Source: Thermoanaerobaculia bacterium
GTDB taxonomy: Bacteria; Acidobacteriota; Thermoanaerobaculia; Gp7-AA8
DNA length: 64,000 bases
Assembly: GCA_034665065.1 (NCBI GenBank)
Contig: JAXDGL010000018.1
Location: 20,126 to 84,125 of the forward strand
Direction of reading: 5' to 3'
Positions within the stretch are counted from its first letter, which is position 1; each line of letters opens with the position of its first letter. The position numbers were made by a program, and so were the translations under genes. The notes beneath the pieces were generated by a model, which was given only the letters and a program-made list of their open reading frames with translations, searched no databases and was not told where the DNA came from. Shown piece by piece: positions 2,651 through 60,929 of this stretch.

Positions 2651-3628
<978 letters not shown>

Positions 3629-41009: not shown

Positions 41010-41291
41010 TCTTCCAAGCCAGCTAAACCTACGAATCGAGCGCCTTCTCCCCCACGCTTTTTGTGGAGGAGAAGGTGCCGAAGGCGGATGAGGGGGGCGT
41101 TAATCGCGGCAGGCGCTGTGTTCGACGCAAGGTTGCTGGGAAGTGCTAAAAATCCCCACCCCCTCATCCGGCCTTCGGCCACCTTCTCCCCCACTGAAAA
41201 GCGTGGTGGAGAAGGGGCTCGATCAAGATGGATGGCGGGGCTGAAAAACGGTGGGCAGAGCGAGACAACCGACAACCGACAACCGACAACG
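40968..41291. repeat. Composite palindromic element: inverted (gttgtcg)/(cgacaac) arrays around a ~190-bp near-perfect palindrome.
   Basis: Outer arrays lie at 40968-40995 and 41263-41291. The inner palindrome runs ccttctcccccacgctttttgtggaggagaaggtgccgaaggcggatgagggggg ... cccccctcatccggccttcggccaccttctcccccactgaaaagcgtggtggagaagg. Confidence 0.8.
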
Positions 41292-44285: not shown

Positions 44286-46310
44286 TTACGGCCGCACCAC
44301 CGCGACGCTGGCCGTCTGCGCCTCGGTCACGCCCTTCTTATGAACCGTGACTTGCAGCGAGGAAGCCTGCGCCGGATCGTCGAGCTGGAGGACGAGCTTC
44401 GTGCCGCCGGTGATCGGAATCGTGCCGAGCAGCTTCGTCTTCGGGGTCGTTTCCCACGTCAGCTCACTCGCGGACGCGCCGTAGACGACGACGGCCACTT
44501 TGTTCGATGCCGTGGCGCTCGGGATGAAGTTCTGCCCGTTCAGTTCGAAGGGATAGTCGCCCGTCGCCCCGCGATCCGTACCTTTCACCAGCAGCCACTT
44601 CGGTTGCTCATCGATCGGAATCGGCGGCAGGACGACGATCTCCCCCGCCCTCGGCACGATCACGTCCGTCCGCGCGAAGCCACGCTTCTCGATCTCGTTC
44701 GGGTTCTTCTTATCCGGTTCACCGGCACGCACCAGCGACTTGATGGCGTACGTCCCGGGAGGCAGCATGAGCGTGCCGTAGTAGCGAACGCCGCTCGTGC
44801 GCAAACGGTCGCCGACTTTCTTCATGTCCAGCGTTAGACGCTGATAGAGGCGATCGCGAACGATGCCTTCGGAATCAAACGCGTAGACGAAAATCTCCGC
44901 GGACGCCACGTTGCCCTTCGCGTGTTTGGCGAGATCGGCGCCATTGAGATCGAGGATGACCGGAACCTGCGAGTTGCCATTCGCTCCCGGAAACGGCGCT
45001 GCAAACGAAGCGAGGTGCACATCATCCTGCGGGATATCGTTGACGATGACTTCGGCCGTCGTCAGCGCGCGCTCGGCTGCCGACTCACCGCCGTTCTCGT
45101 AGTAGCCCATGCGGTAGGAGACGCGGCCCGGCGAGTTGACGAGCTTCACTTTCAAGTCATGGAACTTACCAGGGCTCAACGTCGGAGCCTGAAAGCCGAG
45201 GACATAGACGACTTCCTGGGCGTGCAGCATGCGGTCAAAGTTGTTCTTGAGGTCGTTCGAGTTCTGGAAGACTTCGCCGCCCGTGGGGCTGGAGAGGACG
45301 TGCAGCCCGGCGTTGGAGTTGAAGTTGGAGCCTGCGGCGTCATTCTGAACACGGACGCCCTGAATATCGATGGCGTGGAGAACAACATCGGACGAACGGA
45401 AGGCTTTGGCCATCCTGTCCAGCGTCGTCAAGGTCGCAGTGTTTCCGTAACGCGCATCGTTATCGACCGCCCAGACCTGTCCTGCCATGACTGCGCTGTT
45501 GTCGCGCGCGGCGGCCTCGGTGTCGCGGGCGTCACGCCCTTGCAGATACTTCGCATCGAAACCTTCGGAGAGGAGGATCACCTGCTTGCGGCCCGGTACG
45601 GCGCGAAGTGTCTTGGCCAGATCAGCGAGATAGTCCACTTGCTTGTCGACGCGCGCCTTGATGTATTGCTCGTTGCTACGCGTCATCTGCACTTGCCGCT
45701 CGGCCATTTCAACATCTGCTACGGACTTTGCTTCGCCGGCAGAAGCAGGTTGGGGGGTTTTGACGCTGTCACCGTTCGTCAGATCGGCGACGAAGGTCTG
45801 ATTGCCGATCTGCAGCGGATCATTACCGCGGAAGCCGCTCGGGTCGTTGATCGCTGCGGAAACGAGGGCGTGGTCGGTGGTGAATGCGGTGAGCAGACGG
45901 AAGCCATGATCGTTGTCGAGCGTGCCGACGCCGACGAGGTCGCGGGGCTGAACGGCGGTCGTGACGAAACGCCGGGCCGCTTCCTTCGCGCGGACGAGCG
46001 ACTTCGGAGACGAGTAGCCGAGGTCGAAGAGGAGCAGGAACGAGCGGCGCGCGGCGGGATTCATCGGCGAGATCGCGCTGACCGCTTCTTTTGACTGAAA
46101 ATCGATCTTGTCGAATGACGTGATGGCCTGTTTCTTTCCGCCGTCGTAGAGCTCGAAATTCGCGGCGGTCAGACCGCGCACGGGATTTCCGCTGGAGTCG
46201 ACGACAGAGACAGGAACTTCGACAACGTTGACGTTGACCGTTTCGCGCATCTGCGCGAACGCAGATCCCACGCAGATCATCATGACTGCCGCTACGAATC
46301 GAAGCTTCAT
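44286..46310 (-). CDS. Secreted VWA-domain protein, paralog 2 of 3.
   Basis: Signal peptide. LLFDLGYSSP, in which the first MIDAS Ser is replaced by Gly. Two bp separate it from paralog 1. Confidence 0.8.
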   Translation of the reverse strand: MKLRFVAAVMMICVGSAFAQMRETVNVNVVEVPVSVVDSSGNPVRGLTAANFELYDGGKKQAITSFDKIDFQSKEAVSAISPMNPAARRSFLLLFDLGYSSPKSLVRAKEAARRFVTTAVQPRDLVGVGTLDNDHGFRLLTAFTTDHALVSAAINDPSGFRGNDPLQIGNQTFVADLTNGDSVKTPQPASAGEAKSVADVEMAERQVQMTRSNEQYIKARVDKQVDYLADLAKTLRAVPGRKQVILLSEGFDAKYLQGRDARDTEAAARDNSAVMAGQVWAVDNDARYGNTATLTTLDRMAKAFRSSDVVLHAIDIQGVRVQNDAAGSNFNSNAGLHVLSSPTGGEVFQNSNDLKNNFDRMLHAQEVVYVLGFQAPTLSPGKFHDLKVKLVNSPGRVSYRMGYYENGGESAAERALTTAEVIVNDIPQDDVHLASFAAPFPGANGNSQVPVILDLNGADLAKHAKGNVASAEIFVYAFDSEGIVRDRLYQRLTLDMKKVGDRLRTSGVRYYGTLMLPPGTYAIKSLVRAGEPDKKNPNEIEKRGFARTDVIVPRAGEIVVLPPIPIDEQPKWLLVKGTDRGATGDYPFELNGQNFIPSATASNKVAVVVYGASASELTWETTPKTKLLGTIPITGGTKLVLQLDDPAQASSLQVTVHKKGVTEAQTASVAVVRP

Positions 46311-46377
46311 CGATTTCCTCCTGGATTGGCTTTTACAACAGCGATGCGAGCTGGCCGCAACGCCCAGTGCGACCCGT

Positions 46378-48405
46378 TCACTGCACCACCATCGGCACGC
46401 TCGACTTCCGGGCGTCGCTCGATCCCTTCTTGTGTACGGTTACGTCGAACGATGCTGGACCGCTTTGCAGGCCGGCGGGAGCGTAGTCGAAAATGAGCTT
46501 CATCACATCCTGCCCTTGTAAGCGTGTGACCTCGTCCGGAGCTTCAGAGCGCGGCTGGCCGCGGCCATCGGTAGTCGCGGTTTCCAACGCGAGCTCGTCC
46601 GGTTCGACATTGAAGACGAAGACGGCCACACGCCGGGAGCGGCCGTTGGCGACATGCGCGCTGGCGCTCGGCATGAACGGATCGCCGTTGATGTGAAACG
46701 GATAGGCGGCCGCTTCGTCACGTGAGGCGCCCCGAACCACAACCCATGATGCTGGATCATCGAGAAACATCGGCGGAAGAAGAGCGACGTCGAACGCAGC
46801 GGGAACGTCGACCGTCGTCCGGGCGAATCCTTTTCGCTCCGTTCCTGCGACACGGACGAGCGTCTTTACGTCGTACTTGCCGGGCGAGAGCGTCAGCGTC
46901 GAGAAGAGTTTGATCCCGTTATGCCCCGACAGTTTGGCGCGATCGATCGACAGCCGTTGGTACGAGCGGTCGCGAACGACTCCCGAGTCGTCGAATGCAT
47001 AGACGTACACCTCGGCAGTCACGGCGTTCGATTTGGCATCGCGCACGAGGCCGGCACCGTCGATGTCGATCACCATCGGCACGGCGCCGGTGCCGCTTCG
47101 CGGAAACGCAGCAGCCAACGCGGCGACCGGGATGTCGTTCTGGGGAAGGTCGTTGAGAATGATCTCGGCATTCGAAAGCGAACGTTCCAGCGCGTTTTCC
47201 ACGCCGGACTCGTAGTAGCCGGCGCGATGAAAGACGTTCACGCCTGGCACGCCGGTAACCTTAACTTTGAGCTCGTGGAACTTTCCGTCCTTCGAGGCCG
47301 GCGAGGCAAATCCGAGAACGTAGACGACATCCTGCGAACGCAACATCTTCTCGAGATCGGCATTGATGTCGTTCGAGTTCTTGAAGACTTCGCCTCCCGT
47401 TGGCCGCGACAACAGATGGAGCGCCTCGTTGGAGTTGATGTGAGCCCCGTTTTCGTCGTTCTGCACGCGCACACCCTGGATATCGACGCCGTGCAGGACG
47501 ACGTCCGAGCCGCGAAACGTGCGCGCCATCTCTTCCAGAATCGTCATCGTCATCGAGCTGCCGTAGCGGGCGTCGGTGTCGACACGCCATTGATTTCCTG
47601 ACGTCGTCTGATTCGCGTCGTCCTGCTCGTCGACGCTGGAGTGCACGTCGCGCCCGCGTACGAGCCGCGGATCAAAACCCTCGGAGAAGAGGATGACCTG
47701 CTTGCGGCCGGGCAGCACGCGAAGCACACGGCCAAGATCGCCGAGAAGATGCAGTTGCCGCTCGATGCGCGATCGGTTGTATTGATCGTTGAGTTTCTTC
47801 TCCCCCCGAGCGATGTCGGCGGTGAAATCATCGATGCCATGGACGTCGGCTCGCGGCGACGCATCCTGCACCGGAGCAGCCAGAACGGCGCTGCCGGCGA
47901 TTCGGAGCGGGTCGGAGGAGACGAATGTGCGCGGGTTGGCGATGGCCGCACCGAGGAGGTTGCGGTCGGTCGTGAGAGAGGTGACCATCCGGAATCCATG
48001 GTCAACGTCGACGGTCGCGACGGCCGCGAGGTCGCGACGCCCCATCCCGCGGGCGATAAAGTTTTTTGCCGCTTCCTGCGCTTTATTTCGTCCGACCGGC
48101 GACGAGAACGAGAGATCGAAGAGGAGGATGAAGTTGCGGCGCGCCGACGGATTGAGCGGCGAGGTGGTCTTGCTGATCTCGGCCGAGGCGAAGTCGATGG
48201 CATCGAAATGCGTGATCGGCTTTCGCGCGCCACGATCGAAGAGCTCGAAGTTCGCCGCGGTCAGACCACGCACCGGATTCCCGGACCGGTCGACCACCGT
48301 GACCGGAACCTCGACGAGGTGGACGTCGATCGTTTCCTTGACCTGAGCAAAGGCCGCGCTCGTCGCGAGCAACAGAACGAGCGCAACGCGGCCGGGGCAA
48401 CCCAT
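46378..48405 (-). CDS. Secreted VWA-domain protein, paralog 3 of 3.
   Basis: Signal peptide. LLFDLSFSSP gives a canonical DxSxS. Confidence 0.8.
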   Translation of the reverse strand: MGCPGRVALVLLLATSAAFAQVKETIDVHLVEVPVTVVDRSGNPVRGLTAANFELFDRGARKPITHFDAIDFASAEISKTTSPLNPSARRNFILLFDLSFSSPVGRNKAQEAAKNFIARGMGRRDLAAVATVDVDHGFRMVTSLTTDRNLLGAAIANPRTFVSSDPLRIAGSAVLAAPVQDASPRADVHGIDDFTADIARGEKKLNDQYNRSRIERQLHLLGDLGRVLRVLPGRKQVILFSEGFDPRLVRGRDVHSSVDEQDDANQTTSGNQWRVDTDARYGSSMTMTILEEMARTFRGSDVVLHGVDIQGVRVQNDENGAHINSNEALHLLSRPTGGEVFKNSNDINADLEKMLRSQDVVYVLGFASPASKDGKFHELKVKVTGVPGVNVFHRAGYYESGVENALERSLSNAEIILNDLPQNDIPVAALAAAFPRSGTGAVPMVIDIDGAGLVRDAKSNAVTAEVYVYAFDDSGVVRDRSYQRLSIDRAKLSGHNGIKLFSTLTLSPGKYDVKTLVRVAGTERKGFARTTVDVPAAFDVALLPPMFLDDPASWVVVRGASRDEAAAYPFHINGDPFMPSASAHVANGRSRRVAVFVFNVEPDELALETATTDGRGQPRSEAPDEVTRLQGQDVMKLIFDYAPAGLQSGPASFDVTVHKKGSSDARKSSVPMVVQ

Positions 48406-48465
48406 TCGGATGATTTCTCCCTGATACTGACCGGACAGAATGCCCGAAATACGCGCCGGATTCCG

Positions 48466-49143
48466 TTACGTGTCTGTGGCGTTTCGCCGGGACGCCTTCG
48501 GCGCGCGCGCCGGCGCTTTGCGCGGCGCACCACTCTTCAGCATCCCGTCGCGCAGGATCCGCGAGATCTCGCCCACCACTTCGTCTGTGTTTTTTCCGAA
48601 ATGGTCTTTCACACCGAAGAGAATCTCGATCGAGAAGTAGTTGTAGAAAATACGCGTGGCCAGCATCACGGCGGAGATCGGGGAGAGACCATCCTGGAGA
48701 CGGCCGGCAAGCTCGTCCTCCATCCCATGCTTCTTCATGAACGAGTCGAAGCGCAACGCCATGTCGCCGTAGAACTTGCGAATGTGCGTGCCGTCGAACT
48801 CGACGACGTCGACGTAGATCAGCGCGACATAAGCGCGATAGTCCTTCACCGTCTCCCGCGCGGCGCGGCCGAGGTCTTCGAGATTCTCGGGGAACGTTCC
48901 CGACGCCAGCGCGCGGTTGAACGGGAATTCAGGGTTCGACATGGCCAGGAAATATTGATCGAGCAGTTCCCGGAAGATCGTCTCCTTATCCGAAAAGTGA
49001 TGGTAGACGTTTCCTTTCGACACGCCCGCTTCCTCGGCAATGTCGCGGACACTCGTCGCGCCGTATCCGCGGTGCGAGAACAGTTTGAGCGCGGCTTCGA
49101 GGATTTGGGCGCGGCTGCGCTCGGAGCGCTCTTCCTGGTTCAT
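48466..49143 (-). CDS. TetR-family transcriptional regulator.
   Basis: N-terminal helix-turn-helix RAQILEAALKLFSHRGYGATSVRDIAEEAGVSKGNVYHHF. Confidence 0.9.
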   Translation of the reverse strand: MNQEERSERSRAQILEAALKLFSHRGYGATSVRDIAEEAGVSKGNVYHHFSDKETIFRELLDQYFLAMSNPEFPFNRALASGTFPENLEDLGRAARETVKDYRAYVALIYVDVVEFDGTHIRKFYGDMALRFDSFMKKHGMEDELAGRLQDGLSPISAVMLATRIFYNYFSIEILFGVKDHFGKNTDEVVGEISRILRDGMLKSGAPRKAPARAPKASRRNATDT

Positions 49144-49153
49144 GGTCTCTCCG

Positions 49154-49336
49154 CGGGTGTCGGGGACCGGGGGTCGGGAATCGGAAATAAGCCTTCTTGC
49201 GCGAGCACGTCACCTCCGACACCGAACATCGATTTTTGATCCGCAGATGACGCAGATCGACGCAGATGAGCTTTGATCTGCGAGCATCTGCGTAATCTGC
49301 GGATCACCCACATCCACTTTCCGACTCCCGACTCCC
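49154..49336. repeat. Inverted (gggtcgg)/(ccgactc) heptamer arrays around a triple-repeat palindrome.
   Basis: Left arm gggtgtcggggaccgggggtcgggaatcgg; right arm ccgactcccgactcccg. Confidence 0.8.
49248..49305. promoter_or_regulatory. Candidate operator: three direct cgcagat units mirrored by three atctgcg units.
   Basis: gatccgcagatgacgcagatcgacgcagatgag / ctttgatctgcgagcatctgcgtaatctgcggatc. It lies between the TetR gene start and the upstream gene run. Confidence 0.4.
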
Positions 49337-49352
49337 GAAACGCGACACCCTC

Positions 49353-50825
49353 TCAGGATGACACATCCAACATCTCTCGAAGTTTCGGCTTTTCAACTTT
49401 TCCGTACGGTGTTCGCGGCAAGGACGCGACGAAGATGTAGCGCTTCGGCAGCTTGAACTTCGAAATGCGCTCCGCGAGATAGACTTCCAGCGTCTCCGCA
49501 GTGGCATCGCCGACGATAAACGCGACCGCTACCTCTCCCCACGTTTCATCCGCAACGGAGAGGACCGCAGCGTCAGCAACATTCGGATGCGAGACGAGCT
49601 GCGCCTCGATCTCGGCCGGATAGACGTTCACGCCGCCGCTGATGAACATCTCTTTCTTGCGGCCGGCGATGTAGAAAAATCCTTCGTCATCGCGTCGTGC
49701 GAGATCGCCGGTGTGCAGCCAGCCGTCAGCGTCGAACGCCTCGCGCGTCGCGTCGGGATTGTTCCAATAGCCGAGTGCGACGTGCGGCCCGCGGATCCAC
49801 ATCTCACCGACATCTCCCGCCGGCATCTCCGCGCCGTTTTCATCCACCACACGAATCTCGGTGAACATCATCGGCTTTCCGATCGATCCCGCCTTGCGCC
49901 GCGAGTCTTCCACGGTCATCGAGAAGCAATTCACGCCCGCTTCGGTCATGCCGTAACCCTGTTTCATCTCGATGCCGCGCTTCTGATAGGCATCGATGAT
50001 GTAGTGCGGGAGCGGCGCGCCGCCGGAGATGAACCAGCGCACGTGACGGAAATCCACGCTCGCGAATTCGGGCGACTCCATTAGCATCTTCAGCGTGGTC
50101 GGGACGCCGAGAACGACCGTCGCTTTCTCCCGTTCGATTCTGCGCAGAACTTCGGCTACATCAAACGTGCGATGCAACACGATCGTCCCGCCGACCGTGA
50201 AGATGGGGATGAGAAACGCGGCCACACCACCGGCGTGATAGAGCGGCGTGTAGATCGGACTGACGTCGTCCTCGCGCAGTCCCCAGTTCACGGCCGTGTT
50301 GTAGCCGTTCCACCAGAGCTGACGTTTCGGAATCATCACGCCTTTTGGTTTTCCGGTGGTGCCCGAAGTGTAGAGAAGGCAGTAAGGGTCTTCGGGTGTG
50401 GCGTGTGGGGAGTGGGGGGTGGTAGCGGGAGTCGCTTGTCGGGCGTCGGATTCCGACGAAACCGATACGCGGCACCCGATACCGGCCACGTCGAAGTCGC
50501 CGCTTGTGAACAGCACGCTCATCTCGCAGTCATCGACGATCTGCCGCCGTTCGTGATTCGTCGCGCGCGTCGAAAGCGGCACGACGATCGCGCCGCACTT
50601 GGCAGCGGCAAAGAAAAGCGCGAGAAAGTCGATCGAGTTGTGAAAGAGGATCCCGTATCGATCGCCTGGTCCGACTCCCGTTGCGACGACGGCAGCCGCG
50701 GCGCGCTCTGCGCGAGCGTTCAATTCCGCGTACGTGAGCCGCTCGCCGGTTTCGACCGCGACGAGGGCCAGCTTGCCGGGCGTGAGACGGGCCCGCTCCG
50801 CGAGCAGGTCGCCGTCGAAAATCAA
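49353..50825 (-). CDS. AMP-dependent synthetase/ligase (acyl-CoA synthetase-like).
   Basis: YTSGTTGKPKGV AMP-binding motif and C-terminal GRKKEM. Confidence 0.88.
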   Translation of the reverse strand: MIFDGDLLAERARLTPGKLALVAVETGERLTYAELNARAERAAAAVVATGVGPGDRYGILFHNSIDFLALFFAAAKCGAIVVPLSTRATNHERRQIVDDCEMSVLFTSGDFDVAGIGCRVSVSSESDARQATPATTPHSPHATPEDPYCLLYTSGTTGKPKGVMIPKRQLWWNGYNTAVNWGLREDDVSPIYTPLYHAGGVAAFLIPIFTVGGTIVLHRTFDVAEVLRRIEREKATVVLGVPTTLKMLMESPEFASVDFRHVRWFISGGAPLPHYIIDAYQKRGIEMKQGYGMTEAGVNCFSMTVEDSRRKAGSIGKPMMFTEIRVVDENGAEMPAGDVGEMWIRGPHVALGYWNNPDATREAFDADGWLHTGDLARRDDEGFFYIAGRKKEMFISGGVNVYPAEIEAQLVSHPNVADAAVLSVADETWGEVAVAFIVGDATAETLEVYLAERISKFKLPKRYIFVASLPRTPYGKVEKPKLREMLDVSS

Positions 50826-51706
50826 CGCAGCGCCTCCTGCATCAGGCGAACGAATTCTTTCGGTCCCTGGCGATGAGGAATGTGCGCCGCCTTGTCGATG
50901 ATGTGCAGCGTCGACCCGGCGATGCGCGAATGCAAGGTTTCCGCGTACGCGACCGGCAGCAATCCGTCATGCGCACCCCAGATCATCGTCACCGGCATCG
51001 TCAGATCTTTGAGGCGCGGATCGATCAGGAAGCCGATCAGGCCTGCCTGGATGACGCGCGCCTGTGGCATCTTCGACGCGTTCTTCAACAGCGCATCGAC
51101 CAGATAGTCCGCGATCGGCGTATCGGGTCCGTGTACGAGCCGCAGGACTTTGATCGCCTCCTCGCGGTTCTTCGGAAAGAGGTTAACGTGGCTCATGTCC
51201 CAAACCATGCCGCTGGCGTCTTCGAGCACGAGGTTCGTGACGCGCGTCGGATGGTCCGCCGCGTAGAGCATGCTCACCCATCCGCCCATCGAGTTGCCTG
51301 CGAGCACGACTGGTGCATCGGGTGACTCGCGATCGATGATCGATGCCACCGCCTTCACCATCAGCGGCATCGGCAATGGACCGGTTGCGGGCGCGCTATC
51401 GCCGTGTCCTGGCAGGTCGATCGCGATCACGCGGGCGCCCTTCATGAGCGCCGGGACGACAGCAACCCAGGTCCCGGCCTGATCGTTGACGCCGTGAATC
51501 AGAACGATCGTCCGCGCGCCGCTGCCTCCGGCGAAATAGACGACGCGATTTCCGTCGACGTCGACCGTGCGCTGGTCCATCCCGGCGCGAACGAGTCCGC
51601 GGCGCGTCAGCTTGACGAATGCTTCGAGCGGATGGCGGCGCGCGTACATCGTCGCGCAACCGAACGCGAGGAAGAGAAGGACTACGGCCGTCGCTGCGAT
51701 CTTCAT
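50822..51706 (-). CDS. Alpha/beta-hydrolase-fold serine hydrolase with an N-terminal hydrophobic anchor or signal.
   Basis: HG oxyanion motif HGVNDQ and nucleophile elbow GNSMGG. There are 4-bp start/stop overlaps with both neighbours. Confidence 0.8.
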   Translation of the reverse strand: MKIAATAVVLLFLAFGCATMYARRHPLEAFVKLTRRGLVRAGMDQRTVDVDGNRVVYFAGGSGARTIVLIHGVNDQAGTWVAVVPALMKGARVIAIDLPGHGDSAPATGPLPMPLMVKAVASIIDRESPDAPVVLAGNSMGGWVSMLYAADHPTRVTNLVLEDASGMVWDMSHVNLFPKNREEAIKVLRLVHGPDTPIADYLVDALLKNASKMPQARVIQAGLIGFLIDPRLKDLTMPVTMIWGAHDGLLPVAYAETLHSRIAGSTLHIIDKAAHIPHRQGPKEFVRLMQEALR

Positions 51707-52719
51707 CCGAACAACCTCGCGCCATCCTCCGCCACGCGAAATGCGGTAGCGGCCTGGTTGTATCCGACGCCGGATCCGACGAGCACGACGAGATCACCCG
51801 GCTTGATTTTCCTTTGTCGCAGCGCGTCGTCGAGCGCCATCGGGATGCAGGCCGAGCCGGTGTAGCCGACCGTCTCCATGATCATGTGCGTCTTGCTCAT
51901 CGGCAGGCCGAGGTCCTTCATCACCAACTCGATGGTCGGCTTGCGCACCTGCGTGAAGATCGTGAAGTCGATGTCGCTGACCTCGAAACCGCCATTCTTC
52001 GCCACCTGCCGCACGATGAGCGGCCACCCTGTGTTGTTGATCTCGGGAGGATAGCGCTCGTACATCTTGACGCGCGCCCGTCCTTCGCGGACAGCGATCT
52101 CCGTCGCCGGCTCGACGGTGCCGCCGGCGTGAATCGCCCATCGCGGCGCGTAGGTGCCATCGGCGCGAAACGCTGACGAGATAAACCCGCGCTCTTCACG
52201 TTGTTCGAGCACCGCCGCGCCCGCACCGTCGCCGTAGAAGAAAACCATCGGATCGTCGGCGCTTGTGAGTTTGTGCATCAGATAGACGCCGATCACGAGA
52301 ACGGTCCTAAGGTGCGGACTCGTCGCCATCATCCCGGCCGCCGAGGCAAAGGCGGTGGGAAAGGAGGCGCAGGCGCAACCGACGTCGAACGTACCGGCGT
52401 TTCTCGCTCCCAACTTCCCCTGGACGATGACGGAGGTTGCCGGTGTGATGTAGTCGGGCGAGTCGGTGCCGACGATGATGAGATCGATGTCCTCCGCCGT
52501 TTTGCCCGCGCGCTCGAGGGCGATGTGCGCGGCGCGGACGGCGAGATCGGAGGTCACGACATCGTCGGGCGCCCACCAGCGCGTGAGGATGCCGGTCGAT
52601 GCTTCCATCTTGTTGACGAAGTCGGGCGCGGTGGCGTCGAAACGCGCGCGCAAGTCGTCGTTGGTCACTTTGATCTCCGGCACGTACGAGCCGGTCGCAA
52701 CGATGTTTGCGTGCGTCAT
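51703..52719 (-). CDS. 3-oxoacyl-ACP synthase III-like enzyme (FabH family).
   Basis: Active-site context FDVGCACASF, aligned by eye to FabH AACAGF; 338 aa. Confidence 0.85.
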   Translation of the reverse strand: MTHANIVATGSYVPEIKVTNDDLRARFDATAPDFVNKMEASTGILTRWWAPDDVVTSDLAVRAAHIALERAGKTAEDIDLIIVGTDSPDYITPATSVIVQGKLGARNAGTFDVGCACASFPTAFASAAGMMATSPHLRTVLVIGVYLMHKLTSADDPMVFFYGDGAGAAVLEQREERGFISSAFRADGTYAPRWAIHAGGTVEPATEIAVREGRARVKMYERYPPEINNTGWPLIVRQVAKNGGFEVSDIDFTIFTQVRKPTIELVMKDLGLPMSKTHMIMETVGYTGSACIPMALDDALRQRKIKPGDLVVLVGSGVGYNQAATAFRVAEDGARLFG

Positions 52720-52723
52720 AGGC

Positions 52724-52821
52724 AGGGACGAGGGACGAGGGATGAGGGAAGGGGAACGGCTGGACCAGGTTTGCGAGGGTTCTCTCCCTCGTCCCTTATC
52801 CTTCGCCCCTCGTCCCTGTTC
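52724..52821. repeat. Inverted (gacgagg)/(cctcgtc) heptamer arrays around a ~25-bp core.
   Basis: gggacgagggacgagggatgagggaaggggaacgg ... ctccctcgtcccttatccttcgcccctcgtccctgttcc. Confidence 0.8.
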
Positions 52822-53544
52822 CTAAGTGCCCAGTACCAGTCCTCCATCAACAGAAAGAACGGCTCCGGAAATGAACTTGGCGGCGTCGCTGGCCAGCCAG
52901 ACGTACGCGTTGGCGATGTCGTCGGGCTCGCCGAGCTTCGCCAGCGGCGTTTTCGCGGCCATCGACTCGACGACTTTCTGCGGCATGGCCGTGACCATCT
53001 CGGTGGCGATGAATCCCGGCGCCACGGCGTTCACGCGAATGCCGTATCGCCCCAGTTCGCGCGACCACGTTTTCGTGAAACTGATGACGCCAGCCTTTGT
53101 TGCGGCGTAGTTCGTCTGCCCGAAATTTCCATACAAGCCGACGATCGACGACGCGTTGAGAATCACGCCGCGCTTTGCCTTGATCATGTGCGGCACGACC
53201 GCGCGCGTGCAAAGAAAGACGCCCTTCAGGTTGACGTTGATGACGGCGTCGAATGCGGCGTCGTCCATCATGCCGGTGACGCCGTCTTTCCACTTCACGA
53301 GCTGGGCGTCTCGCACGATGCCGGCGTTGTTGACGAGCACGTCGATGCGGCCATGTGTGGCGATCACATCCTCGACCGCTTTCTGGACCGAGGCGGAGTC
53401 GGTGACGTCGACTTTCGGGTCGGTCGTCACATCCCACGCCACGACGGTCGCGCCCTCAGCCCTGAACCGTTCGACGGTGGCGCGGCCGATTCCGGCGGCA
53501 CCGCCGGTTACGATGACAACTTTGTCTTCAAGATTCAGATCCAT
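52822..53544 (-). CDS. Classical SDR 3-oxoacyl-ACP reductase-like enzyme (FabG-like).
   Basis: TGGAAGIG Rossmann motif and a YxxxK active site; 240 aa. Confidence 0.88.
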   Translation of the reverse strand: MDLNLEDKVVIVTGGAAGIGRATVERFRAEGATVVAWDVTTDPKVDVTDSASVQKAVEDVIATHGRIDVLVNNAGIVRDAQLVKWKDGVTGMMDDAAFDAVINVNLKGVFLCTRAVVPHMIKAKRGVILNASSIVGLYGNFGQTNYAATKAGVISFTKTWSRELGRYGIRVNAVAPGFIATEMVTAMPQKVVESMAAKTPLAKLGEPDDIANAYVWLASDAAKFISGAVLSVDGGLVLGT

Positions 53545-53650
53545 TCAATGACCACCCACGCGCCTCGAAGAATCAAGATCAAGAATTACCGTCCGACCGG
53601 TCGGTTTGTTCTTTCGCGCAATGTAGGCTGATCGTGCGGCGGGTGTCAAG

Positions 53651-53804
53651 TGCGGTGTGGGGGGTAGGGAGTGGGGAGTGGGGAGTGGGAGCAGAAGCAG
53701 TGTAGTTACGGTCCGCCGCAGTCCTTACTATCGCAAGTATCCACAGAGCCGGCACCATCGCCGATTCAACTCCCACTCCCCACCCCCCACTCCCCACACC
53801 CCAC
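53651..53804. repeat. Inverted (gtgggga)/(tccccac) heptamer arrays around a ~75-bp core in a divergent promoter region.
   Basis: gtgcggtgtggggggtagggagtggggagtggggagtgggag ... ctcccactccccaccccccactccccacaccccac. Confidence 0.85.
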
Positions 53805-53826
53805 GGACGCGGTAGAATCCCGCGCC

Positions 53827-54462
53827 ATGTCGCTGCTCATGCAACGCAAAGGTCCGCCCGCTCCGCTGCCACGTCTCGAAGGAAAAGAAGTTCTCACCGG
53901 CCCGAATCCGGAGATCGCCAAAGTCAAAGGCGTCATGTTCGGTGGCCGCAAACAGTTCCTCGCCGACACCGCCGGTGATGAAGGTTTTGCTGCTATTCTC
54001 GCGAAGGTCTCGCCGAAAACGGCCGGTTACGTAAAGACGCCGCTGGCATCGAGCTGGTGCGAATTCTCATCGGTGATCGAGCTCGATCGCGCCATCCACG
54101 AGACGATGAAAGCGAAGTATCCCAATGTTCTCGCGCTCATCGGCGCGGCGTCGGCGGAGTTGGGAATCGGCCGCGTCTACAAATCGCTCGACAGCACGGA
54201 GCTTCTGAAGTTTCTCGAAAGCCAGGCGCTCTTTCACAGCCAGTTTCAGAAGTTCGGCAATGTTCGTTTCGAGAAGACTGCCAGCGGCGGACGGATGATC
54301 TGCAGCGACTATCCCGTCTACAGCCCAATCTACTGCGCCAGCGCGGTCGGCTTTTATCTCGAGTCGATCCTGCGCCACGGCGGCGGCGAGCCGAGCGTGG
54401 TCGAAACGAAATGCCACACGCTGGGCGATTCGCACTGCACGTTTGAGATGACCTGGAGATAG
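53827..54462 (+). CDS. V4R-domain-containing protein with a putative small-molecule-binding domain.
   Basis: C-terminal ...VETKCHTLGDSHCTFEMTW matches the V4R C-x-x-G-D-x-x-C-x-F pattern. The N-terminal region resembles H-NOX/V4R-associated folds (IGAASAELG). Confidence 0.5.
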   Translation: MSLLMQRKGPPAPLPRLEGKEVLTGPNPEIAKVKGVMFGGRKQFLADTAGDEGFAAILAKVSPKTAGYVKTPLASSWCEFSSVIELDRAIHETMKAKYPNVLALIGAASAELGIGRVYKSLDSTELLKFLESQALFHSQFQKFGNVRFEKTASGGRMICSDYPVYSPIYCASAVGFYLESILRHGGGEPSVVETKCHTLGDSHCTFEMTWR

Positions 54463-54527: not shown

Positions 54528-55847
54528 ATGCACTTCCAACAGTTTTACCTCGGTTGTCTCGCTCACGCCTCGTACCTGATCGCGGACGGCGGCGAAGCAG
54601 TCGTGGTCGATCCGCAACGCGACGTCGATCAATACATCGAGGCGGCGGACAAACTTGGCGTCGCGATCCGTTACGTGATCGAGACCCATCTCCACGCCGA
54701 CTTCGTGAGCGGACATCGCGAGCTTGCCGCGCGAAGCGGCGCGGAGATCGTTTTCGGTGCGCGGGCAAATGCCGCGTTCCCGCACCGCGCCGTTCACGAT
54801 GGCGACGATCTGCGAATCGGGAACATCGAGCTGCGTGCGATCGAGACGCCGGGTCACACGCCGGAGTCGATCTCATGGCTCCTTTCCGCGAATGGCGAGC
54901 CATCCCGGCTTCTGACCGGCGACACGCTCTTCATCGGCGACGTTGGCCGTCCCGATCTCGCCGGCTCGCGCGGCTTCACATCCGAAGAAATGGCGTCGAT
55001 GCTTTACGACTCGCTCCACGAGAAAATCCTCACGCTGCCTGATGACGTGGAAGTCTGGCCTGCGCATGGCGCCGGCTCCTCGTGCGGACGCAACATCTCC
55101 AACGAGCTGACGTCCACGATCGGCGCACAGCGGCGAATGAACTGGGCGCTGCAACCGATGACTCGGGAAGAGTTCATCGAGAAGCTGACCTCCGGCCTTG
55201 CCGCACCGCCACGCTATTTTCCGCGCGACGCGGAGATGAACCGTATCGGGCCATCGTCCCTGAATGACGAAGGGCCGCCGCTTCTGACGCCAGAGACGAT
55301 TCCTCCCGACGCCGTGATCCTCGATGTGCGCGATCCCGGCATCTTTTGCGCGCGTCACATCGCCGGCGCGATCAACATCGCCCTCGACGGAAGTTTCGCT
55401 CCATGGTGCGGCGCGCTCCTTTCGTACGATGCGCCAATCGTCATCGCCGCCGATAACGTCAGCGCCGCGTTCCAGGCCTTTGTGCGGCTCGCCCGCGTGG
55501 GGATCGAAAACGTCGCGGGCTACATCACCGCGAGCGACGACTTCCCGATCGTGAGCATCCCGCAACTCACGATCGAGCGAGTCCGCTCCGAAGCGCCCGC
55601 CGTCCTCGACGTTCGCAGGCGGACGGAGTATGCCGAAGGCCACATTCCCGGCGCGCAGAACATCCCACTCGACGAGTTGCCTGAGCGGCTCGCGGAGGTC
55701 GACCGCGAAAACCCGCTGGCGGTGATCTGCGCCGGTGGTTATCGCTCGTCGATTGCCAGCAGTCTTCTCGCACGTAACGGCTTCACGAACGTGATCAACG
55801 TCGAGGGTGGCACCGAAGAGTGGGAGCGTCAGACGGCGAATCGGTAG
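54528..55847 (+). CDS. MBL-fold metallo-hydrolase fused to tandem rhodanese domains (persulfide dioxygenase-rhodanese type).
   Basis: HLHADF metallo-beta-lactamase motif and C-terminal rhodanese CAGGYRSS. Confidence 0.85.
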   Translation: MHFQQFYLGCLAHASYLIADGGEAVVVDPQRDVDQYIEAADKLGVAIRYVIETHLHADFVSGHRELAARSGAEIVFGARANAAFPHRAVHDGDDLRIGNIELRAIETPGHTPESISWLLSANGEPSRLLTGDTLFIGDVGRPDLAGSRGFTSEEMASMLYDSLHEKILTLPDDVEVWPAHGAGSSCGRNISNELTSTIGAQRRMNWALQPMTREEFIEKLTSGLAAPPRYFPRDAEMNRIGPSSLNDEGPPLLTPETIPPDAVILDVRDPGIFCARHIAGAINIALDGSFAPWCGALLSYDAPIVIAADNVSAAFQAFVRLARVGIENVAGYITASDDFPIVSIPQLTIERVRSEAPAVLDVRRRTEYAEGHIPGAQNIPLDELPERLAEVDRENPLAVICAGGYRSSIASSLLARNGFTNVINVEGGTEEWERQTANR

Positions 55848-55853
55848 TCAAGC

Positions 55854-56936
55854 TTGCCGCGAACAGTGCGCGCCACGCGCGCGCCGCAGACATCGTGGTA
55901 CAACTCCCCGGCTTTGCGCCGCACACTCCAGGTAACCTCCGTCGCCCTGCTCACGATCTTTTTCCTCGGGCTCTTCCTTTGGAAAAGCAACCTCGCGGAC
56001 GTGTGGCGGATCATGACGGCAACGAGCCCGCTTTGGCTCGCATCGGCGTTCGTCGTCAACTGGATGGCGCTGGTGTTTCGCACCATTCGCTGGCGTGTAC
56101 TGCTCGCCAATCCCAAACCTCCCCGCTTCTATCCGACGTTTTTCGCCAACACGACCGGCTACATGTTGTCGACTGTTCTGCCGATCCGGGCCGGTGATGT
56201 CGCGCGGCCTGCTCTTCTGGCGAGGCGCACCGACATTCGATTTGCGGAGGCGTTGGGAACGGTGTTGACGGAACGGGTGCTCGACCTGTTCAGCATCCTC
56301 TCGATTTTCATATGGTTTGCTGCCGTGCGCTGGAATGCCTTTCCCAACGGGACGGGCGTTGTGCATGGAGGAGCGATCGGCTGCGGCATAGTCCTGGCCG
56401 CACTCGTGTCGTTTCTGTTCGGACTCTATTTCTTTGGCGGAATGGTTCGGCGCGCGCACGAATGGATCGGCCGCATTCTGCCGAAACGATTTCGCGAGCC
56501 GTGGATGAAGTTCTTCGACGCGTTCGCGAAGACGCTTGCGATCACGAAACGTCCGCGTGATTTTCTCACCGTCATTTTCGCTACCGCCGGCGTCTGGCTC
56601 TGCCTGACGGCGCAGTACTGCCTCGTTTTCATTGCCGTGCATCACCCGCTTCCGTACGACTCGACGTTCTTCATCAACGCGGTGACCACCATCGGCGTGG
56701 CCATTCCCACTCCCGGCGGCGTGGGCGGATTCCACAAGCTCTGCCAATGGGCGCTGACCTCGTTTTACGGATTCGACATCGATACCTCGGTTGCGACCGC
56801 GCTGCTGCTCCATCTCGTCGGGACGCTTCCGGTCGTGATCACCGGAGTCGTCCTCTTCGCGCGCGAAGGTCTGCGCTGGCGCGATCTCCGGCACGAAGCT
56901 GCTGATGTGCCCAGCGACGCGGCTTCACAGTCGTGA
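55854..56936 (+). CDS. Membrane protein of the lysylphosphatidylglycerol-synthase-TM / flippase-like family (UPF0104).
   Basis: Eight or more TM helices. RWRVLL and PGGVGG motifs are typical of this family. Confidence 0.6.
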   Translation: MPRTVRATRAPQTSWYNSPALRRTLQVTSVALLTIFFLGLFLWKSNLADVWRIMTATSPLWLASAFVVNWMALVFRTIRWRVLLANPKPPRFYPTFFANTTGYMLSTVLPIRAGDVARPALLARRTDIRFAEALGTVLTERVLDLFSILSIFIWFAAVRWNAFPNGTGVVHGGAIGCGIVLAALVSFLFGLYFFGGMVRRAHEWIGRILPKRFREPWMKFFDAFAKTLAITKRPRDFLTVIFATAGVWLCLTAQYCLVFIAVHHPLPYDSTFFINAVTTIGVAIPTPGGVGGFHKLCQWALTSFYGFDIDTSVATALLLHLVGTLPVVITGVVLFAREGLRWRDLRHEAADVPSDAASQS

Positions 56937-56952
56937 TATACGGCGCACCGAA

Positions 56953-57399
56953 ATGCGCTGCCCGTTCTGTGGCAACACGGAAGACCGTGTGGTCGACTCA
57001 CGAGAGAGCCGCGAGGCCGACGTCATCCGCCGGCGCCGCGAGTGCACGAAGTGCGAGCGCCGCTTCACCAGTTACGAGAAGATCGAGCAGGTTCCGTTTC
57101 AAGTCGTGAAGCGCGACGAGCGGCGCGAGTCGTACGACCGAGGAAAACTGATGCGCGGCCTGCAGGTGGCCTGCCGCAAACGTCCCGTTGCGCAGGAAAA
57201 ACTGGAGCGTATGGCCGACTCCATCGAAACGGCCATGCAGGACTCCAGCGAGCGTGAGATTTCCAGCTCAACGATTGGAACGATGGTCATGGAGCGATTG
57301 CGCGCTCTCGATCCCGTTGCCTACGTTCGGTTCGCATCGGTCTATCGCCGATTCGAAGATGTCGATGCCTTTGTGAAAGAGTTGCATCAATTGAAGTAG
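56953..57399 (+). CDS. nrdR: Transcriptional repressor NrdR.
   Basis: MRCPFCG...C..C zinc ribbon plus an ATP-cone. Confidence 0.9.
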   Translation: MRCPFCGNTEDRVVDSRESREADVIRRRRECTKCERRFTSYEKIEQVPFQVVKRDERRESYDRGKLMRGLQVACRKRPVAQEKLERMADSIETAMQDSSEREISSSTIGTMVMERLRALDPVAYVRFASVYRRFEDVDAFVKELHQLK

Positions 57400-57480
57400 A
57401 TCGAGAATCACCTGATGGCGGCACAGGAACACGCATTGCAGAGGGAACCAGACGGTTCCCCCGAAATTTGAGAGGTCCAG

Positions 57481-59952: not shown

Positions 59953-59967
59953 ATTCAACAAGAGAGC

Positions 59968-60059
59968 GGGACGTAGGTCGGACTCTCTAGTCCGACTTCT
60001 CACGTTCCACTGCGAACATTCCTTTGTCGGACTGGAGAGTCCGACCTACGTTTCGCCCG
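59968..60059. repeat. Repeat family C copy C2, a paired hairpin placed like a terminator after lon.
   Basis: gggacgtaggtcggactctctagtccgac ... gtcggactggagagtccgacctacgtttcgccc. Confidence 0.65.
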
Positions 60060-60113
60060 CCAGAAGAATGTGGCACAGACACTTTGTCGGTGCTTCGGCG
60101 ATAGAATCCATTC

Positions 60114-60311
60114 ATGGCTGACAATCCGCAGGACGACGCGAACGACAAAGGCTTCTGGGACGGTGGGTCCGCCGGGCATGGAACGAACAAAGAGTCGTCC
60201 GGCCGGCCGAACGGCTATCCCGGCAAGCGCTCCAATTCGCGCACCGGCTACCGCACGGACATCGAGTTCCCGCCGGAGACCGAGGGAAATCGCAGCCAGC
60301 AGAAAAAGTAA
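60114..60311 (+). CDS. Small hydrophilic protein (65 aa), possibly stress-related.
   Basis: Strong third-position GC bias. Gly/Asn/Lys-rich. Lies upstream of the ECF sigma gene. No ribosome-binding site is evident. Confidence 0.4.
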   Translation: MADNPQDDANDKGFWDGGSAGHGTNKESSGRPNGYPGKRSNSRTGYRTDIEFPPETEGNRSQQKK

Positions 60312-60350
60312 ATCCGGCTCCGGCGCCGGAACGTAATCTCAGCGCCGGCC

Positions 60351-60929
60351 ATGACTGCTGCAATGGATATTGGCGTCGAATCCAGCTCACTGCTGCCTGC
60401 CGTCGCGCAGGGGGATCTCACTGCGTTCGAGCGGCTCTACGACCGTCACTCGTCCACACTCTATGCACTTCTCCTACGCATTCTCGCCAATCCTGATGAT
60501 GCGCAGGAAGTCCTGCAGGAGACGTTCGTGAAGGCGTGGACGAACGCGAAGATGTTCGACGCCGTGCGTGGAACCGACGTGGCGTGGCTGATCTCGATCG
60601 CGCGCAGCCGCGGGATCGACCGGCTCCGCTCACGCAAGATTCGCGGAGACCGCGAAGACGATGCCGGACGCGAGCTCGCCAGCGGACCCGGGTTCGTCGA
60701 GAAACGAACCGGCGCCGACGACGCGATCGAAGCAGAAGAGCGGATGGCGGTACGAGGCGCCCTCGCGGAGCTGCCCGAGCCGCAGCGTGTGGCCCTCGCT
60801 CTCGCCTACTTCGAGGGTCTCTCGCAGTCCGAGATCGCCGCGAAACTCGGCGAGCCTCTCGGCACGATCAAGACACGGATGCAACTCGGGATGAAGAAAC
60901 TGCGGGAACGGCTGAAGGCCTATCGATGA
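60351..60929 (+). CDS. ECF-type RNA polymerase sigma-70 factor.
   Basis: Region 2 YALLLRILANPDDAQEVLQETFVKAW and region 4 LSQSEIAAKLGEPLGTIKTRM. Confidence 0.9.
   Translation: MTAAMDIGVESSSLLPAVAQGDLTAFERLYDRHSSTLYALLLRILANPDDAQEVLQETFVKAWTNAKMFDAVRGTDVAWLISIARSRGIDRLRSRKIRGDREDDAGRELASGPGFVEKRTGADDAIEAEERMAVRGALAELPEPQRVALALAYFEGLSQSEIAAKLGEPLGTIKTRMQLGMKKLRERLKAYR

Follow-up and report, generated by a model that had tools for sequence, protein, structure and literature searches.

Closest described systems and layout of the locus

In FabH, the ketoacyl-acyl carrier protein (ACP) synthase III (KAS III) whose E. coli triad C112, H244 and N274 served as our reference, the His-Asn pair is responsible for malonyl decarboxylation and enolate stabilisation, and a basic patch formed by Arg249, Lys214 and Lys256/257 serves ACP docking. 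KAS III-like acyltransferases in which only the Cys remains occur in natural-product pathways. Here we analysed a stretch of 64,000 nucleotides (hereafter, the window) from a Thermoanaerobaculia bacterium of the phylum Acidobacteriota (contig JAXDGL010000018.1, positions 20,126 to 84,125). It carries a TetR-linked operon encoding a KAS III-like protein (hereafter, the KAS-like protein) that has kept the Cys and lost the His-Asn pair.

The module resembles several described systems in part. It shares with OleABCD the same four superfamilies and a similar order of thiolase-fold, hydrolase and ligase genes, but it sits among import systems rather than forming a stand-alone ole operon. Its ligase is a generic ANL enzyme nearest to acyl-coenzyme A (CoA) synthetases. 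The lower beta-ketoadipate pathway (PcaD, PcaIJ and PcaF) follows the same logic, an ester or lactone being opened, activated with CoA and cleaved thiolytically; the module adds a short-chain dehydrogenase/reductase (SDR) and the FabH-like enzyme and has no genes for aromatic ring cleavage in its vicinity. For the cytoplasmic hydrolases of related loci, PcaD models gave the highest scores, although under the cut-off.

Esterases, acyl-CoA synthetases and a TetR regulator are reportedly also present in an archaeal gene cluster for ACP-independent fatty-acid synthesis. The complex encoded there performs CoA-based 3-oxo/(R)-3-hydroxyacyl chemistry with a FabG-type SDR and a thiolase/DUF35 pair (bioRxiv 10.1101/2024.07.05.601840), but its reductase is strictly NADPH-dependent and it includes a dehydratase and an enoyl reductase, whereas the module has an apparently NAD-type SDR and neither of the latter. 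In HMGS-like/ACAT/DUF35 complexes (HMGS, 3-hydroxy-3-methylglutaryl-CoA (HMG-CoA) synthase), including archaeal thiolase/HMGCS/DUF35, a rewired KAS III/HMGS fold stands beside a thiolase and DUF35, as it stands beside an SCP-x-type thiolase and DUF35 in many lineages of the module (PMC12960953). About 1,000 bacterial loci of this kind, with rewired catalytic residues, are uncharacterised, and one uncharacterised representative, from Pseudomonas, performs acetoacetyl-CoA thiolysis (PMC12960953). The module protein differs from these in being FabH-derived, in keeping the Cys and in occurring also without thiolase and DUF35, as in the window.

The operon occupies positions 48466-53544 of the minus strand and has the gene order given by a preceding sequence-only reading of this DNA. 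It starts with the SDR gene (52822-53544; 240 aa, with the classical TGGAAGIG and YxxxK motifs), followed by the genes for the KAS-like protein (51703-52719; 338 aa, domains ACP_syn_III and ACP_syn_III_C), a Ser-type alpha/beta hydrolase resembling PlaF and ABHD6 (50822-51706; 294 aa, with the GNSMG elbow at residues 137-141), an AMP-forming acyl-CoA ligase (49353-50825; 490 aa) and, as the last gene, a TetR-family regulator (48466-49143; Pfam TetR_N, 2e-21). That reading had described 4-bp ATGA overlaps at two junctions: the KAS/hydrolase junction is indeed a true ATGA overlap, whereas the hydrolase/ligase junction is TTGA, the ligase starting at a TTG codon that overlaps the hydrolase stop codon. 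The FabI-like enoyl reductase gene to which it had pointed is present elsewhere in the window (62341-63138; score of 338.6 against a cut-off of 370). A search of the window for a thiolase or DUF35 gene found none, and the window copy of the operon comes with neither an outer-membrane receptor nor an inner-membrane transporter.

A FabH-fold protein with a replaced catalytic set

The KAS-like protein matched both Pfam domains of KAS III over the gathering scores (ACP_syn_III, 1.5e-14; ACP_syn_III_C, 3.6e-24) and thus has the same fold as FabH, with the nucleophilic Cys and the GxG oxyanion loop conserved. The sequence-only reading had singled out a Cys-His-Asn triad for inspection, and most of it turned out to be missing. 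Comparison with four solved FabHs showed that the Cys is retained, whereas His244, Asn247 and Asn274 are replaced by Thr, Arg and Tyr, respectively. The resulting set comprises Asp86, Cys117, Thr256, Arg259, Tyr286 and Cys291, of which Asp86 and Cys291 are additions relative to FabH. The replacements are fixed in 86-87 of 87 acidobacterial orthologues (from 80 genome loci), and the set D-C-T-Y-C in 87 of 87. With Arg or Asn at the position of FabH residue 247, the signature D-C-T-[R/N]-Y-C was found in every copy examined, tandem duplicates included, and it recurs in relatives from Bacteroidota, Chlorobiota and Chloroflexota.

The differences from FabH extend well beyond these positions. Residues invariant in the D-C-T-Y-C clade and not found in FabH are Asp86, Tyr146, Met148, Pro224, Asn228, Trp232, Thr256, Tyr286, Cys291 and Ser316; among them, Pro224, Asn228 and Trp232 replace a face of the tunnel helix. 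Phe87 has become Ser or Thr throughout the clade. Residues for ACP docking have been lost as well: Arg36, Arg151 and Arg249 are absent in the 87 orthologues, and in all three groups compared, Arg249 has given way to Pro, Asn or Glu and Lys214 to Glu or Asp.

The proposal that the module is a dedicated, TetR-linked unit distinct from housekeeping fatty-acid synthesis, with its KAS III outside FabH proper, held in the comparison with canonical FabH. The KAS-like protein scored below the NCBIfam FabH cut-offs (PRK09352, 209.3 versus 249; TIGR00747, 186 versus 292.1); its best relatives include the FabH structure 4dfe (4e-45), and it is 31% identical to E. coli FabH. In a homologue search covering 1.84 billion representative proteins, the nearest full-length relatives (37-57% identity) share the signature, and canonical Cys-His-Asn (C-H-N) FabHs start at 41% identity or less. 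A neighbour-joining tree of the D-C-T-Y-C clade and 81 C-H-N sequences, built without OleA, PqsD and DarB sequences, separated the two in 98 of 100 bootstraps, and in 93 of 100 when the signature columns were left out.

On the catalytic residues, cut-off scores and tree, we rejected a housekeeping FabH/FabG pair, and initiation of type II fatty-acid synthesis by such a pair is scarcely conceivable here. The database names '3-oxoacyl-ACP synthase III' and 'FabG' and the high conservation would suit that role, and the SDR of Chondrinema litorale is barely above one FabG model (299.6 versus 296), but the catalytic His and Asn and the ACP-docking arginines are absent, the cofactor motif of the SDR is of the NAD type, transporters adjoin the operon, and no fabD, acpP or fabF gene is nearby.

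Judged from these comparisons of sequences, the D-C-T-Y-C clade is a KAS III-fold subfamily, conserved over several phyla, whose catalytic set has been replaced and which belongs to a recurrent uptake-linked operon. Its members carry generic database names ("ketoacyl-ACP synthase III", "3-oxoacyl-ACP synthase III family protein"), and a literature search for a Cys-only or Thr/Tyr FabH-like family, or for the module operon, returned no description. Thousands of proteins that databases list as "ketoacyl-ACP synthase III" or "FabG" are members of the module and probably mis-annotated, which would inflate counts of fatty-acid and polyketide potential in genomes of Acidobacteriota, Bacteroidota, Chlorobiota and Chloroflexota. 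The interest of the locus lies in this enzyme more than in the idea of a lipid or signal cluster.

Without the His-Asn pair, the KAS-like enzyme has no machinery left to decarboxylate malonyl units or to stabilise the enolate, and we are confident that it does not act by decarboxylative condensation. Because the new residue set is strictly conserved, the active site appears to be remodelled, not dead. Asp86 sits 31 residues ahead of Cys117, and in HMG-CoA synthase, the catalytic Glu lies 32 residues ahead of its Cys (E82/C114; PMC12960953). The spacing and the profile coordinates suggest that Asp86 may be equivalent to this Glu.

The KAS-like gene is tandemly duplicated in seven related loci, L045, L050, L054, L056, L070 and L077 (Thermoanaerobaculaceae-type) as well as L084; in L045, the duplicated block is larger and includes the hydrolase and ligase genes. 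Both tandem copies keep D-C-T-[R/N]-Y-C, and hetero-dimers or two specificities are possible.

The module in Acidobacteriota and other phyla

Of the 56 related acidobacterial loci with sufficient flanking sequence, 47 show the four genes in colinear order, and their clustering goes far beyond chance. TetR was found in 44 of the 56. In Acidobacteriota, 46 loci have a TonB-dependent-receptor-like gene, which lies immediately upstream of the SDR gene wherever both were called; other loci carry a canonical Plug-bearing receptor or a major facilitator superfamily (MFS) transporter. The ligase is often followed by additional alpha/beta hydrolases and an SCP-x-type thiolase, and most acidobacterial loci have no inner-membrane transporter.

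Outside the Acidobacteriota, the module is found with other companions. In the Chloroflexota plasmid record CP069395, the SDR and KAS-like genes are accompanied by genes for a CoA-transferase of the acetyl-CoA hydrolase/transferase family, an archaeal-type thiolase, DUF35, a hydrolase and a LIV-type ATP-binding cassette (ABC) importer. Chondrinema litorale and Fulvivirga imtechensis (Bacteroidota) have SDR, KAS-like protein, Na+/solute symporter (SSS), AMP-ligase, hydrolase, a protein of ~480-510 aa and a TonB-dependent receptor, and Chloroherpetonaceae (Chlorobiota) have MarR, SDR, KAS-like protein, MFS transporter, ligase, lipoprotein, porin-like protein and hydrolase. An unclassified metagenome contig (L081) has hydrolases, KAS-like protein, SDR, ABC importer and TetR, and a metagenome scan, seeded with a single protein, added a metagenomic lineage with the order MalT-like regulator, KAS-like protein, ligase, hydrolase, thiolase, DUF35, hydrolase, SDR, ligase, hydrolase and ABC importer.

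Constant across these lineages are thus the SDR and the KAS-like protein, together with an enzyme for CoA activation and at least one esterase, and the regulator (TetR, MarR or MalT-like) and the inner-membrane importer (SSS, MFS or ABC) vary between lineages. The inspected operons contained no ACP, polyketide synthase parts, acyl-CoA dehydrogenase, enoyl-CoA hydratase or dehydratase (for acyl-CoA dehydrogenase and hydratase, the check covered eight operons annotated by Pfam or by the record annotation). Exporters were likewise not found beside the module in the examined loci of Acidobacteriota, Bacteroidota, Chlorobiota and Chloroflexota and in L081. A constant enzyme set combined with varying regulators and importers, and with neither ACP nor polyketide synthase, argues for a substrate-utilisation locus, not a biosynthetic cluster. 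We consider it likely that the locus is catabolic in nature and that the module supplies the core enzymes of a widely conserved operon for nutrient scavenging, linked to importers.

The same context bears on the proposal of the sequence-only reading, a cluster that would activate an acid, condense it by Claisen chemistry, reduce and release it as a small lipid or signal. The four superfamilies and their order do mirror OleA, OleB, OleC and OleD, as had been noted, and the regulator is dedicated and the KAS not a housekeeping FabH. The likeness to oleA-oleB-oleC ends there: the match to OleA is weak (~1e-16, confined to residues 42-133), and the His and Asn on which OleA, PqsD and every decarboxylating KAS III rely are both replaced. 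As the sequence-only reading itself had remarked, the hydrolase, with Ser in its GNSMG elbow, is unlike the Asp-nucleophile OleB, and the reductase is a 240-aa classical SDR, not an OleD of ~330 aa. On haloalkane dehalogenase models the hydrolase scored 48 bits against a cut-off of 241. The suggested resemblance to PqsA/PqsD/PqsE fares no better, with PqsD (1.3e-28) a weaker match than FabH (4e-45), the triad absent and a hydrolase of alpha/beta rather than metallo-beta-lactamase (MBL) fold. OleABCD and PqsADE as such were rejected on similarity ranks and defining residues. With a ligase nearest to acyl-CoA synthetases, importers and esterases as the context in four phyla, and an SDR of the NAD type, a specialised biosynthetic cluster built on Claisen chemistry, whether for olefins or beta-lactones, an alkylquinolone-like signal or another lipid, is very improbable.

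The Chloroflexota locus and the metagenomic lineage pair the module with thiolase and DUF35 genes, and many acidobacterial loci pair it with an SCP-x-type thiolase. This would suit a KAS-like protein serving as a non-catalytic scaffold of a thiolase/DUF35 complex, like PhlA and MucA, and there are documented bacterial HMGS-like/ACAT/DUF35 complexes whose HMGS-like units are dead (PMC12960953). We regard such a role as quite improbable: the Cys, Asp86, Tyr286 and Cys291 are invariant across phyla, the tunnel residues have been replaced co-ordinately, PhlA and MucA lack the Cys (PMC12960953), and there is no thiolase or DUF35 gene in the window, its closest relatives or the examined Bacteroidota and Chlorobiota loci.

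Proteins of ~480-525 aa with no Pfam or NCBIfam match are encoded in L087 (15222-16658), L088 (14367-15905) and L089 (13543-15120). They directly precede the TonB receptor gene in both Bacteroidota loci; the Chlorobiota protein precedes the hydrolase gene in a locus where no receptor is seen. The two Cytophagales proteins share 57% identity, and the one from Chloroherpetonaceae is unrelated and has a signal peptide. A further candidate for a novel protein, L060 12278-13687, was rejected as a wrong-frame open reading frame over the thiolase gene.

The accompanying enzymes

The SDR (Pfam adh_short_C2, 2.6e-58) is FabG-like, with a score of 256 against a FabG cut-off of 298, and has the motifs TGGAAGIG and NYAATK. 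Its best solved relative is 4nbw (7.7e-88), which we take to be an NADH-preferring FabG homologue of Plesiocystis pacifica acting as a 3-oxoacyl reductase. The two share the GLYGNFGQTNY motif and are colinear except for an 18-aa segment between strands beta2 and beta3, which 4nbw and the rest of the family have and the window SDR has lost. The SDR also matched the (3R)-hydroxyacyl-CoA dehydrogenase of MFE-2 (2et6, 4e-56). At the end of strand beta2 it carries Asp38; an Asp, a classical determinant of NAD(H) use, is found there in all eight module SDRs aligned, whereas E. coli FabG has Thr. The SDR is thus a probable FabG-like (R)-3-hydroxyacyl-CoA dehydrogenase of the NAD(H) type, its Asp being more in keeping with oxidation than with a reductive, biosynthetic role.

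The opposite direction would be expected if the module carried out a single round of ACP-independent elongation or salvage, in which the KAS-like enzyme would perform a non-decarboxylative Claisen condensation with acetyl-CoA, with Asp86 as the base, followed by NADH reduction and release by the hydrolase. The closest solved SDR relative would fit as an NADH-using 3-oxoacyl reductase, and the acidic residue, invariant in the clade, appears to coincide with the catalytic Glu of HMG-CoA synthase or to be displaced from it by no more than one position. The archaeal complex of ketothiolase/DUF35 and FabG-like reductase shows that CoA-based condensation and reduction occur (bioRxiv 10.1101/2024.07.05.601840), but in that synthesis the reductase is strictly NADPH-dependent. 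Furthermore, importers and exported esterases point to consumption of a substrate, the dehydratase and enoyl reductase are missing, the use of the product is not obvious, and there is no counterpart of the His with which HMG-CoA synthase and thiolases position the keto substrate. Elongation of this kind is distinctly unlikely.

The hydrolase has PlaF (PA2949) as its best solved relative (6i8w, 4.7e-25, over residues 10-288, the N-terminal helix included) and also matched ABHD6 (7ots, 3e-15). It shares with both an N-terminal transmembrane helix, a juxtamembrane segment and the Ser-elbow alpha/beta fold, although the identity is distant only. With a hydrophobic segment at residues 3-19 (Kyte-Doolittle 2.3), it is probably anchored in the membrane and faces the periplasm, as does the catalytic domain of PlaF (PMC9132575). 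The Fulvivirga and Chloroherpetonaceae orthologues differ in starting with apparently cleavable signal peptides (their hydrophobic N-termini were read by eye as signal peptide or lipoprotein signal), and some acidobacterial orthologues are without the N-terminal helix. The PlaF-like anchor and the signal-like N-termini of the Fulvivirga and Chloroherpetonaceae counterparts place the hydrolysis step outside the cytoplasm.

The ligase (Pfam AMP-binding, 6.8e-93; C-terminal domain, 1.7e-18; P-loop YTSGTTGKPKG) reached no cut-off among the NCBIfam models; it matched FadD13 at 2e-93 and the anthranilate-CoA ligase 4wv3 at 6e-51. None of the curated family scores of hydrolases, ligase, symporter and CoA-transferase was above its cut-off, and because the hydrolases, symporter and CoA-transferase thus fall short of every curated model, the substrate cannot be read from the sequences. 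BioZ/BioH pimelate synthesis was considered and rejected (96 versus 207 for the hydrolase on BioH, 8e-27 for BioZ structures, and no bio genes nearby); BioZ retains Cys-His-Asn, which also counts against identity with it. MenE/MenH menaquinone synthesis was rejected too, with sub-threshold matches only and no men genes.

A membrane role is suggested by the PlaF likeness. In a bacterial 'Lands cycle' module for membrane-lipid remodelling or fatty-acid salvage, which we consider unlikely, the PlaF-like phospholipase A would deacylate membrane or imported lipids, the FadD-like ligase would activate a fatty acid, and the KAS-like protein, as a Cys-only, acyl-CoA-dependent acyltransferase, would reacylate the lysolipid or load a carrier. 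The best solved relative of the hydrolase is PlaF, with the transmembrane and juxtamembrane helix within the match, that of the ligase is FadD13, and the Thr or Ser in place of Phe87 suggests that the acyl channel is open. The long-chain mycobacterial FabH reportedly shows the same kind of replacement. A lipophilic acid would also fit the missing inner-membrane transporter in most acidobacterial loci, and the partner acyltransferase of PlaF is still not known according to the PlaF paper (PMC9132575). Such a cycle, attractive for the acidobacterial version, leaves no role for the invariably adjacent NAD-type FabG-like SDR. Nor does it explain the small-solute importers: elsewhere, an apparently soluble exported hydrolase and importers of the Na+/solute, MFS and LIV-type ABC kinds suggest a small hydrophilic acid, and thiolase/DUF35 and PcaD-like esterases co-occur with the module.

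A proposed pathway for esterified 3-hydroxy acids

The reading that we prefer, although we hold it tentatively and with somewhat more doubt than belief in its full mechanism, is a TetR-repressed catabolic operon that handles (R)-3-hydroxy acids imported as esters. In relatives, the esterified substrate would cross the outer membrane through the TonB-dependent-receptor-like protein, the gene for which is deleted in the window genome. The membrane-anchored, PlaF-like serine hydrolase would free the carboxylic acid, the AMP-ligase (in some lineages, the CoA-transferase) would make the CoA thioester, and the NAD-dependent FabG-like SDR would oxidise (R)-3-hydroxyacyl-CoA to 3-oxoacyl-CoA. The FabH-derived enzyme would then perform non-decarboxylative thiol chemistry on the CoA ester through an acyl-Cys117 intermediate, with Asp86, Tyr286 and Cys291 functionally replacing the His-Asn pair. 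The likeliest reaction would be a CoA-dependent C-C cleavage, a thiolase-like retro-Claisen, carried out alone or together with the SCP-x thiolase/DUF35 pair where lineages have one. The bacterial HMGS-like/ACAT/DUF35 loci and the archaeal ketothiolase/DUF35/FabG-like complex are precedents for rewired complexes of the thiolase superfamily. TetR would bind CCGACCGGTCGG, a palindrome just downstream of the promoter, and would be released by a CoA ester of the pathway.

The gene content, residue replacements, clade, synteny with importers, NAD-type motif, deletion and conserved palindrome are seen directly in the sequences, and from them we infer which way the pathway runs, what it acts on, what the KAS-like enzyme does and where TetR binds. 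SDRs of the FabG type are (R)-specific and ordinary beta-oxidation handles the (S)-isomers, which makes a separate route for (R)-3-hydroxy acids reasonable. That the inspected operons have no dehydrogenase or hydratase fits a substrate already bearing the 3-hydroxy group. Our leading guess for the substrate is (R)-3-hydroxyalkanoate esters, for example polyhydroxyalkanoate oligomers, or other 3-hydroxy-acid esters or lactones; candidate sources of the acid are polyhydroxyalkanoate fragments, lipid A or lipopeptide acids and lactone-derived acids.

Several observations weigh against this pathway. No characterised homologue fixes the reaction of the D-C-T-Y-C proteins, we know of no precedent for a FabH-fold enzyme acting as a degradative thiolase, and lineages with a classical thiolase have no obvious need for another enzyme that cleaves C-C bonds. 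Acidobacteriota have not kept the Trp32/Arg151 pair that stacks on the CoA adenine, and Bacteroidota members retain CoA-stacking Trp32 with Lys or Arg at 151. The NAD(H) motif of the SDR is no proof of an oxidative direction, and the closest solved SDR, 4nbw, was reportedly studied as a reductase by Javidpour et al. in 2014. The substrate is a guess: the ligase is about equally distant from FadD13, feruloyl-CoA synthetase, MatB and MenE, and the hydrolases score weakly and about equally on models of polyhydroxyalkanoate depolymerase, PcaD, BioH and MenH. Finally, with neither receptor nor inner-membrane transporter, the window copy may now have a role that differs from that of its relatives.

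It is possible, if on balance doubtful, that the D-C-T-Y-C proteins form a new class of enzymes, with a FabH scaffold turned into a non-decarboxylating, CoA-dependent cleaving enzyme that, with the NAD-SDR, defines a new pathway for scavenging 3-hydroxy-acid esters in at least four phyla. Such an enzyme could be a thiolase on the 'wrong' branch of the superfamily, or it could be a thiolytic esterase of oligo-(R)-3-hydroxyalkanoyl-CoA, which could convert the oligomer-CoA directly to monomer CoA esters with a saving of ATP. If true, a FabH-derived cleaving or transferring enzyme would be a new reaction type in the thiolase superfamily and would join repurposed active sites such as those of the Ltp2/Sal aldolases and the PhlA/MucA complexes. 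It would also show how abundant soil and sediment heterotrophs harvest ester-bound hydroxy-acids, possibly breakdown products of polyhydroxyalkanoate.

Promoter, candidate operator and loss of the receptor gene

At the head of the operon, on the minus strand, lies a sigma-70-like promoter (53620-53649; TTGACA, 18 nt, TACATT; 10 of 12 matches), the only promoter-like site within 48300-53900 and the putative start of operon transcription. The perfect 12-bp palindrome CCGACCGGTCGG (53593-53604) is located 16 bp downstream of the -10 hexamer and occurs once in the window. Each of 20 related loci likewise has exactly one copy, mostly at ~3590-4930 of the 17-kb loci, a few kb upstream of the KAS-like gene (8001). 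In one close relative, L001, the palindrome occupies 4342-4353, 41 bp ahead of the start of the receptor gene (4394). Its position and co-occurrence make it a candidate TetR operator; the match of the window TetR to characterised TetRs is confined to the helix-turn-helix region.

Alignment to L001 located the scar of a deletion at 53554-53582, where a TonB-dependent-receptor-like outer-membrane gene has been lost. Window positions 53583-53662 correspond to L001 4284-4363, an 80-bp block of 87.7% identity upstream of the L001 receptor gene, and window position 53553 corresponds to L001 7214. The 2.85 kb between them (L001 4364-7213) have no counterpart in the window. This segment, present in L001 and in a second close relative, L002, carries the receptor gene (4394-7159; 921 aa, CarboxypepD_reg/TonB-dependent-receptor-like). 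As a result, in the window the block with the promoter and palindrome directly abuts the SDR gene.

Hairpin spacers within the operon

Two repeat-bearing spacers interrupt the operon, much as the sequence-only reading had described them (a heptamer-array spacer of ~100 bp after the SDR gene and a repeat/palindrome spacer of ~200 bp before TetR). The SDR/KAS spacer (52720-52821, minus strand; 102 bp) is a hairpin of inverted AGGGACG heptamer arrays, with arms of 32 nt that are 84% complementary and a folding energy of -62 kcal/mol (z = -5.6). The ligase/TetR spacer (49144-49352, minus strand; 209 bp) is a nested hairpin in which a 31-nt palindrome lies within inverted CCGACTC heptamer arrays (-110 kcal/mol, z = -6.9). 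An Rfam scan of both spacers found no family at threshold; the only sub-threshold hits, to eukaryotic microRNA hairpin models, are meaningless.

L001 and L002, the relatives whose proteins are 85-90% identical to those of the window module, have far shorter spacers at the same two junctions or none. By tblastn coordinates, they measure ~57 and ~12 bp in L001, where the TetR match starts ~12 bp past the end of the ligase gene, and none and ~16 bp in L002. The window spacer DNA gave no alignment with either relative. Because the L001 and L002 spacers are so much shorter or absent and cannot be aligned, the window spacers are taken as recent, lineage-specific insertions. By the evidence of these alignments, the window holds a derived form of the operon, with the outer-membrane importer lost and two hairpin repeats inserted between cistrons; both changes mark an operon under remodelling in this genome.

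Tandem heptamer arrays with other units are present at further sites in the window, several as inverted pairs: 11397-11487; 30093-30132 with 30249-30313; 30910-30946 with 31045-31088; 40968-40991 with 41264-41290; and 53650-53696 with 53765-53804. Their units include GTTGTCG, GAATGTT/TCAACAT, AAGGATG/TTCATCC, GTTGCCG/GACAACC and AGTGGGG/CCCACTC. These arrays belong to the same type of element as the spacers of the operon and look like a genome-wide family of hairpin-forming repeats with arms built of variable 7-mers. Longer repeats occur at 2208-2618 and 26075-26283: a 208-bp unit present twice at 93% identity and an 82-bp unit present 2.5 times at 79%.

Neighbouring genes

Directly downstream of TetR, on the minus strand, lie two tandem paralogous acidobact_VWFA (TIGR03436) genes of 675 aa each (44286-48405), and their adjacency to TetR is kept in many related loci (for example, L001, L002, L005, L008, L015 and L017). 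Divergent from the operon is a conserved gene at 53671-54462 (plus strand) with no Pfam match, the C-terminal 90 residues of which are weakly similar to the C-terminal domain of MsvR (4.9e-05). Because its listed GTG start overlaps the 53650-53804 hairpin repeat, the true start is probably further downstream, at an ATG at ~53826. Synteny of this gene with the operon is restricted to close relatives (L001-L003, L010 and L026).

Further along, 54528-55847 (plus strand) encodes a fusion of an MBL-fold domain and rhodanese that is persulfide-dioxygenase-like, and 56905-63138 includes genes for NrdR, Lon protease, an extracytoplasmic function sigma/anti-sigma pair, a PRK11440-type hydrolase (NF008517) and the FabI-like reductase. 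The genes of 54528-63138 are unlinked to the operon in other genomes, except for the MBL-rhodanese gene, which accompanies it in a few close relatives (L001, L016 and L031).

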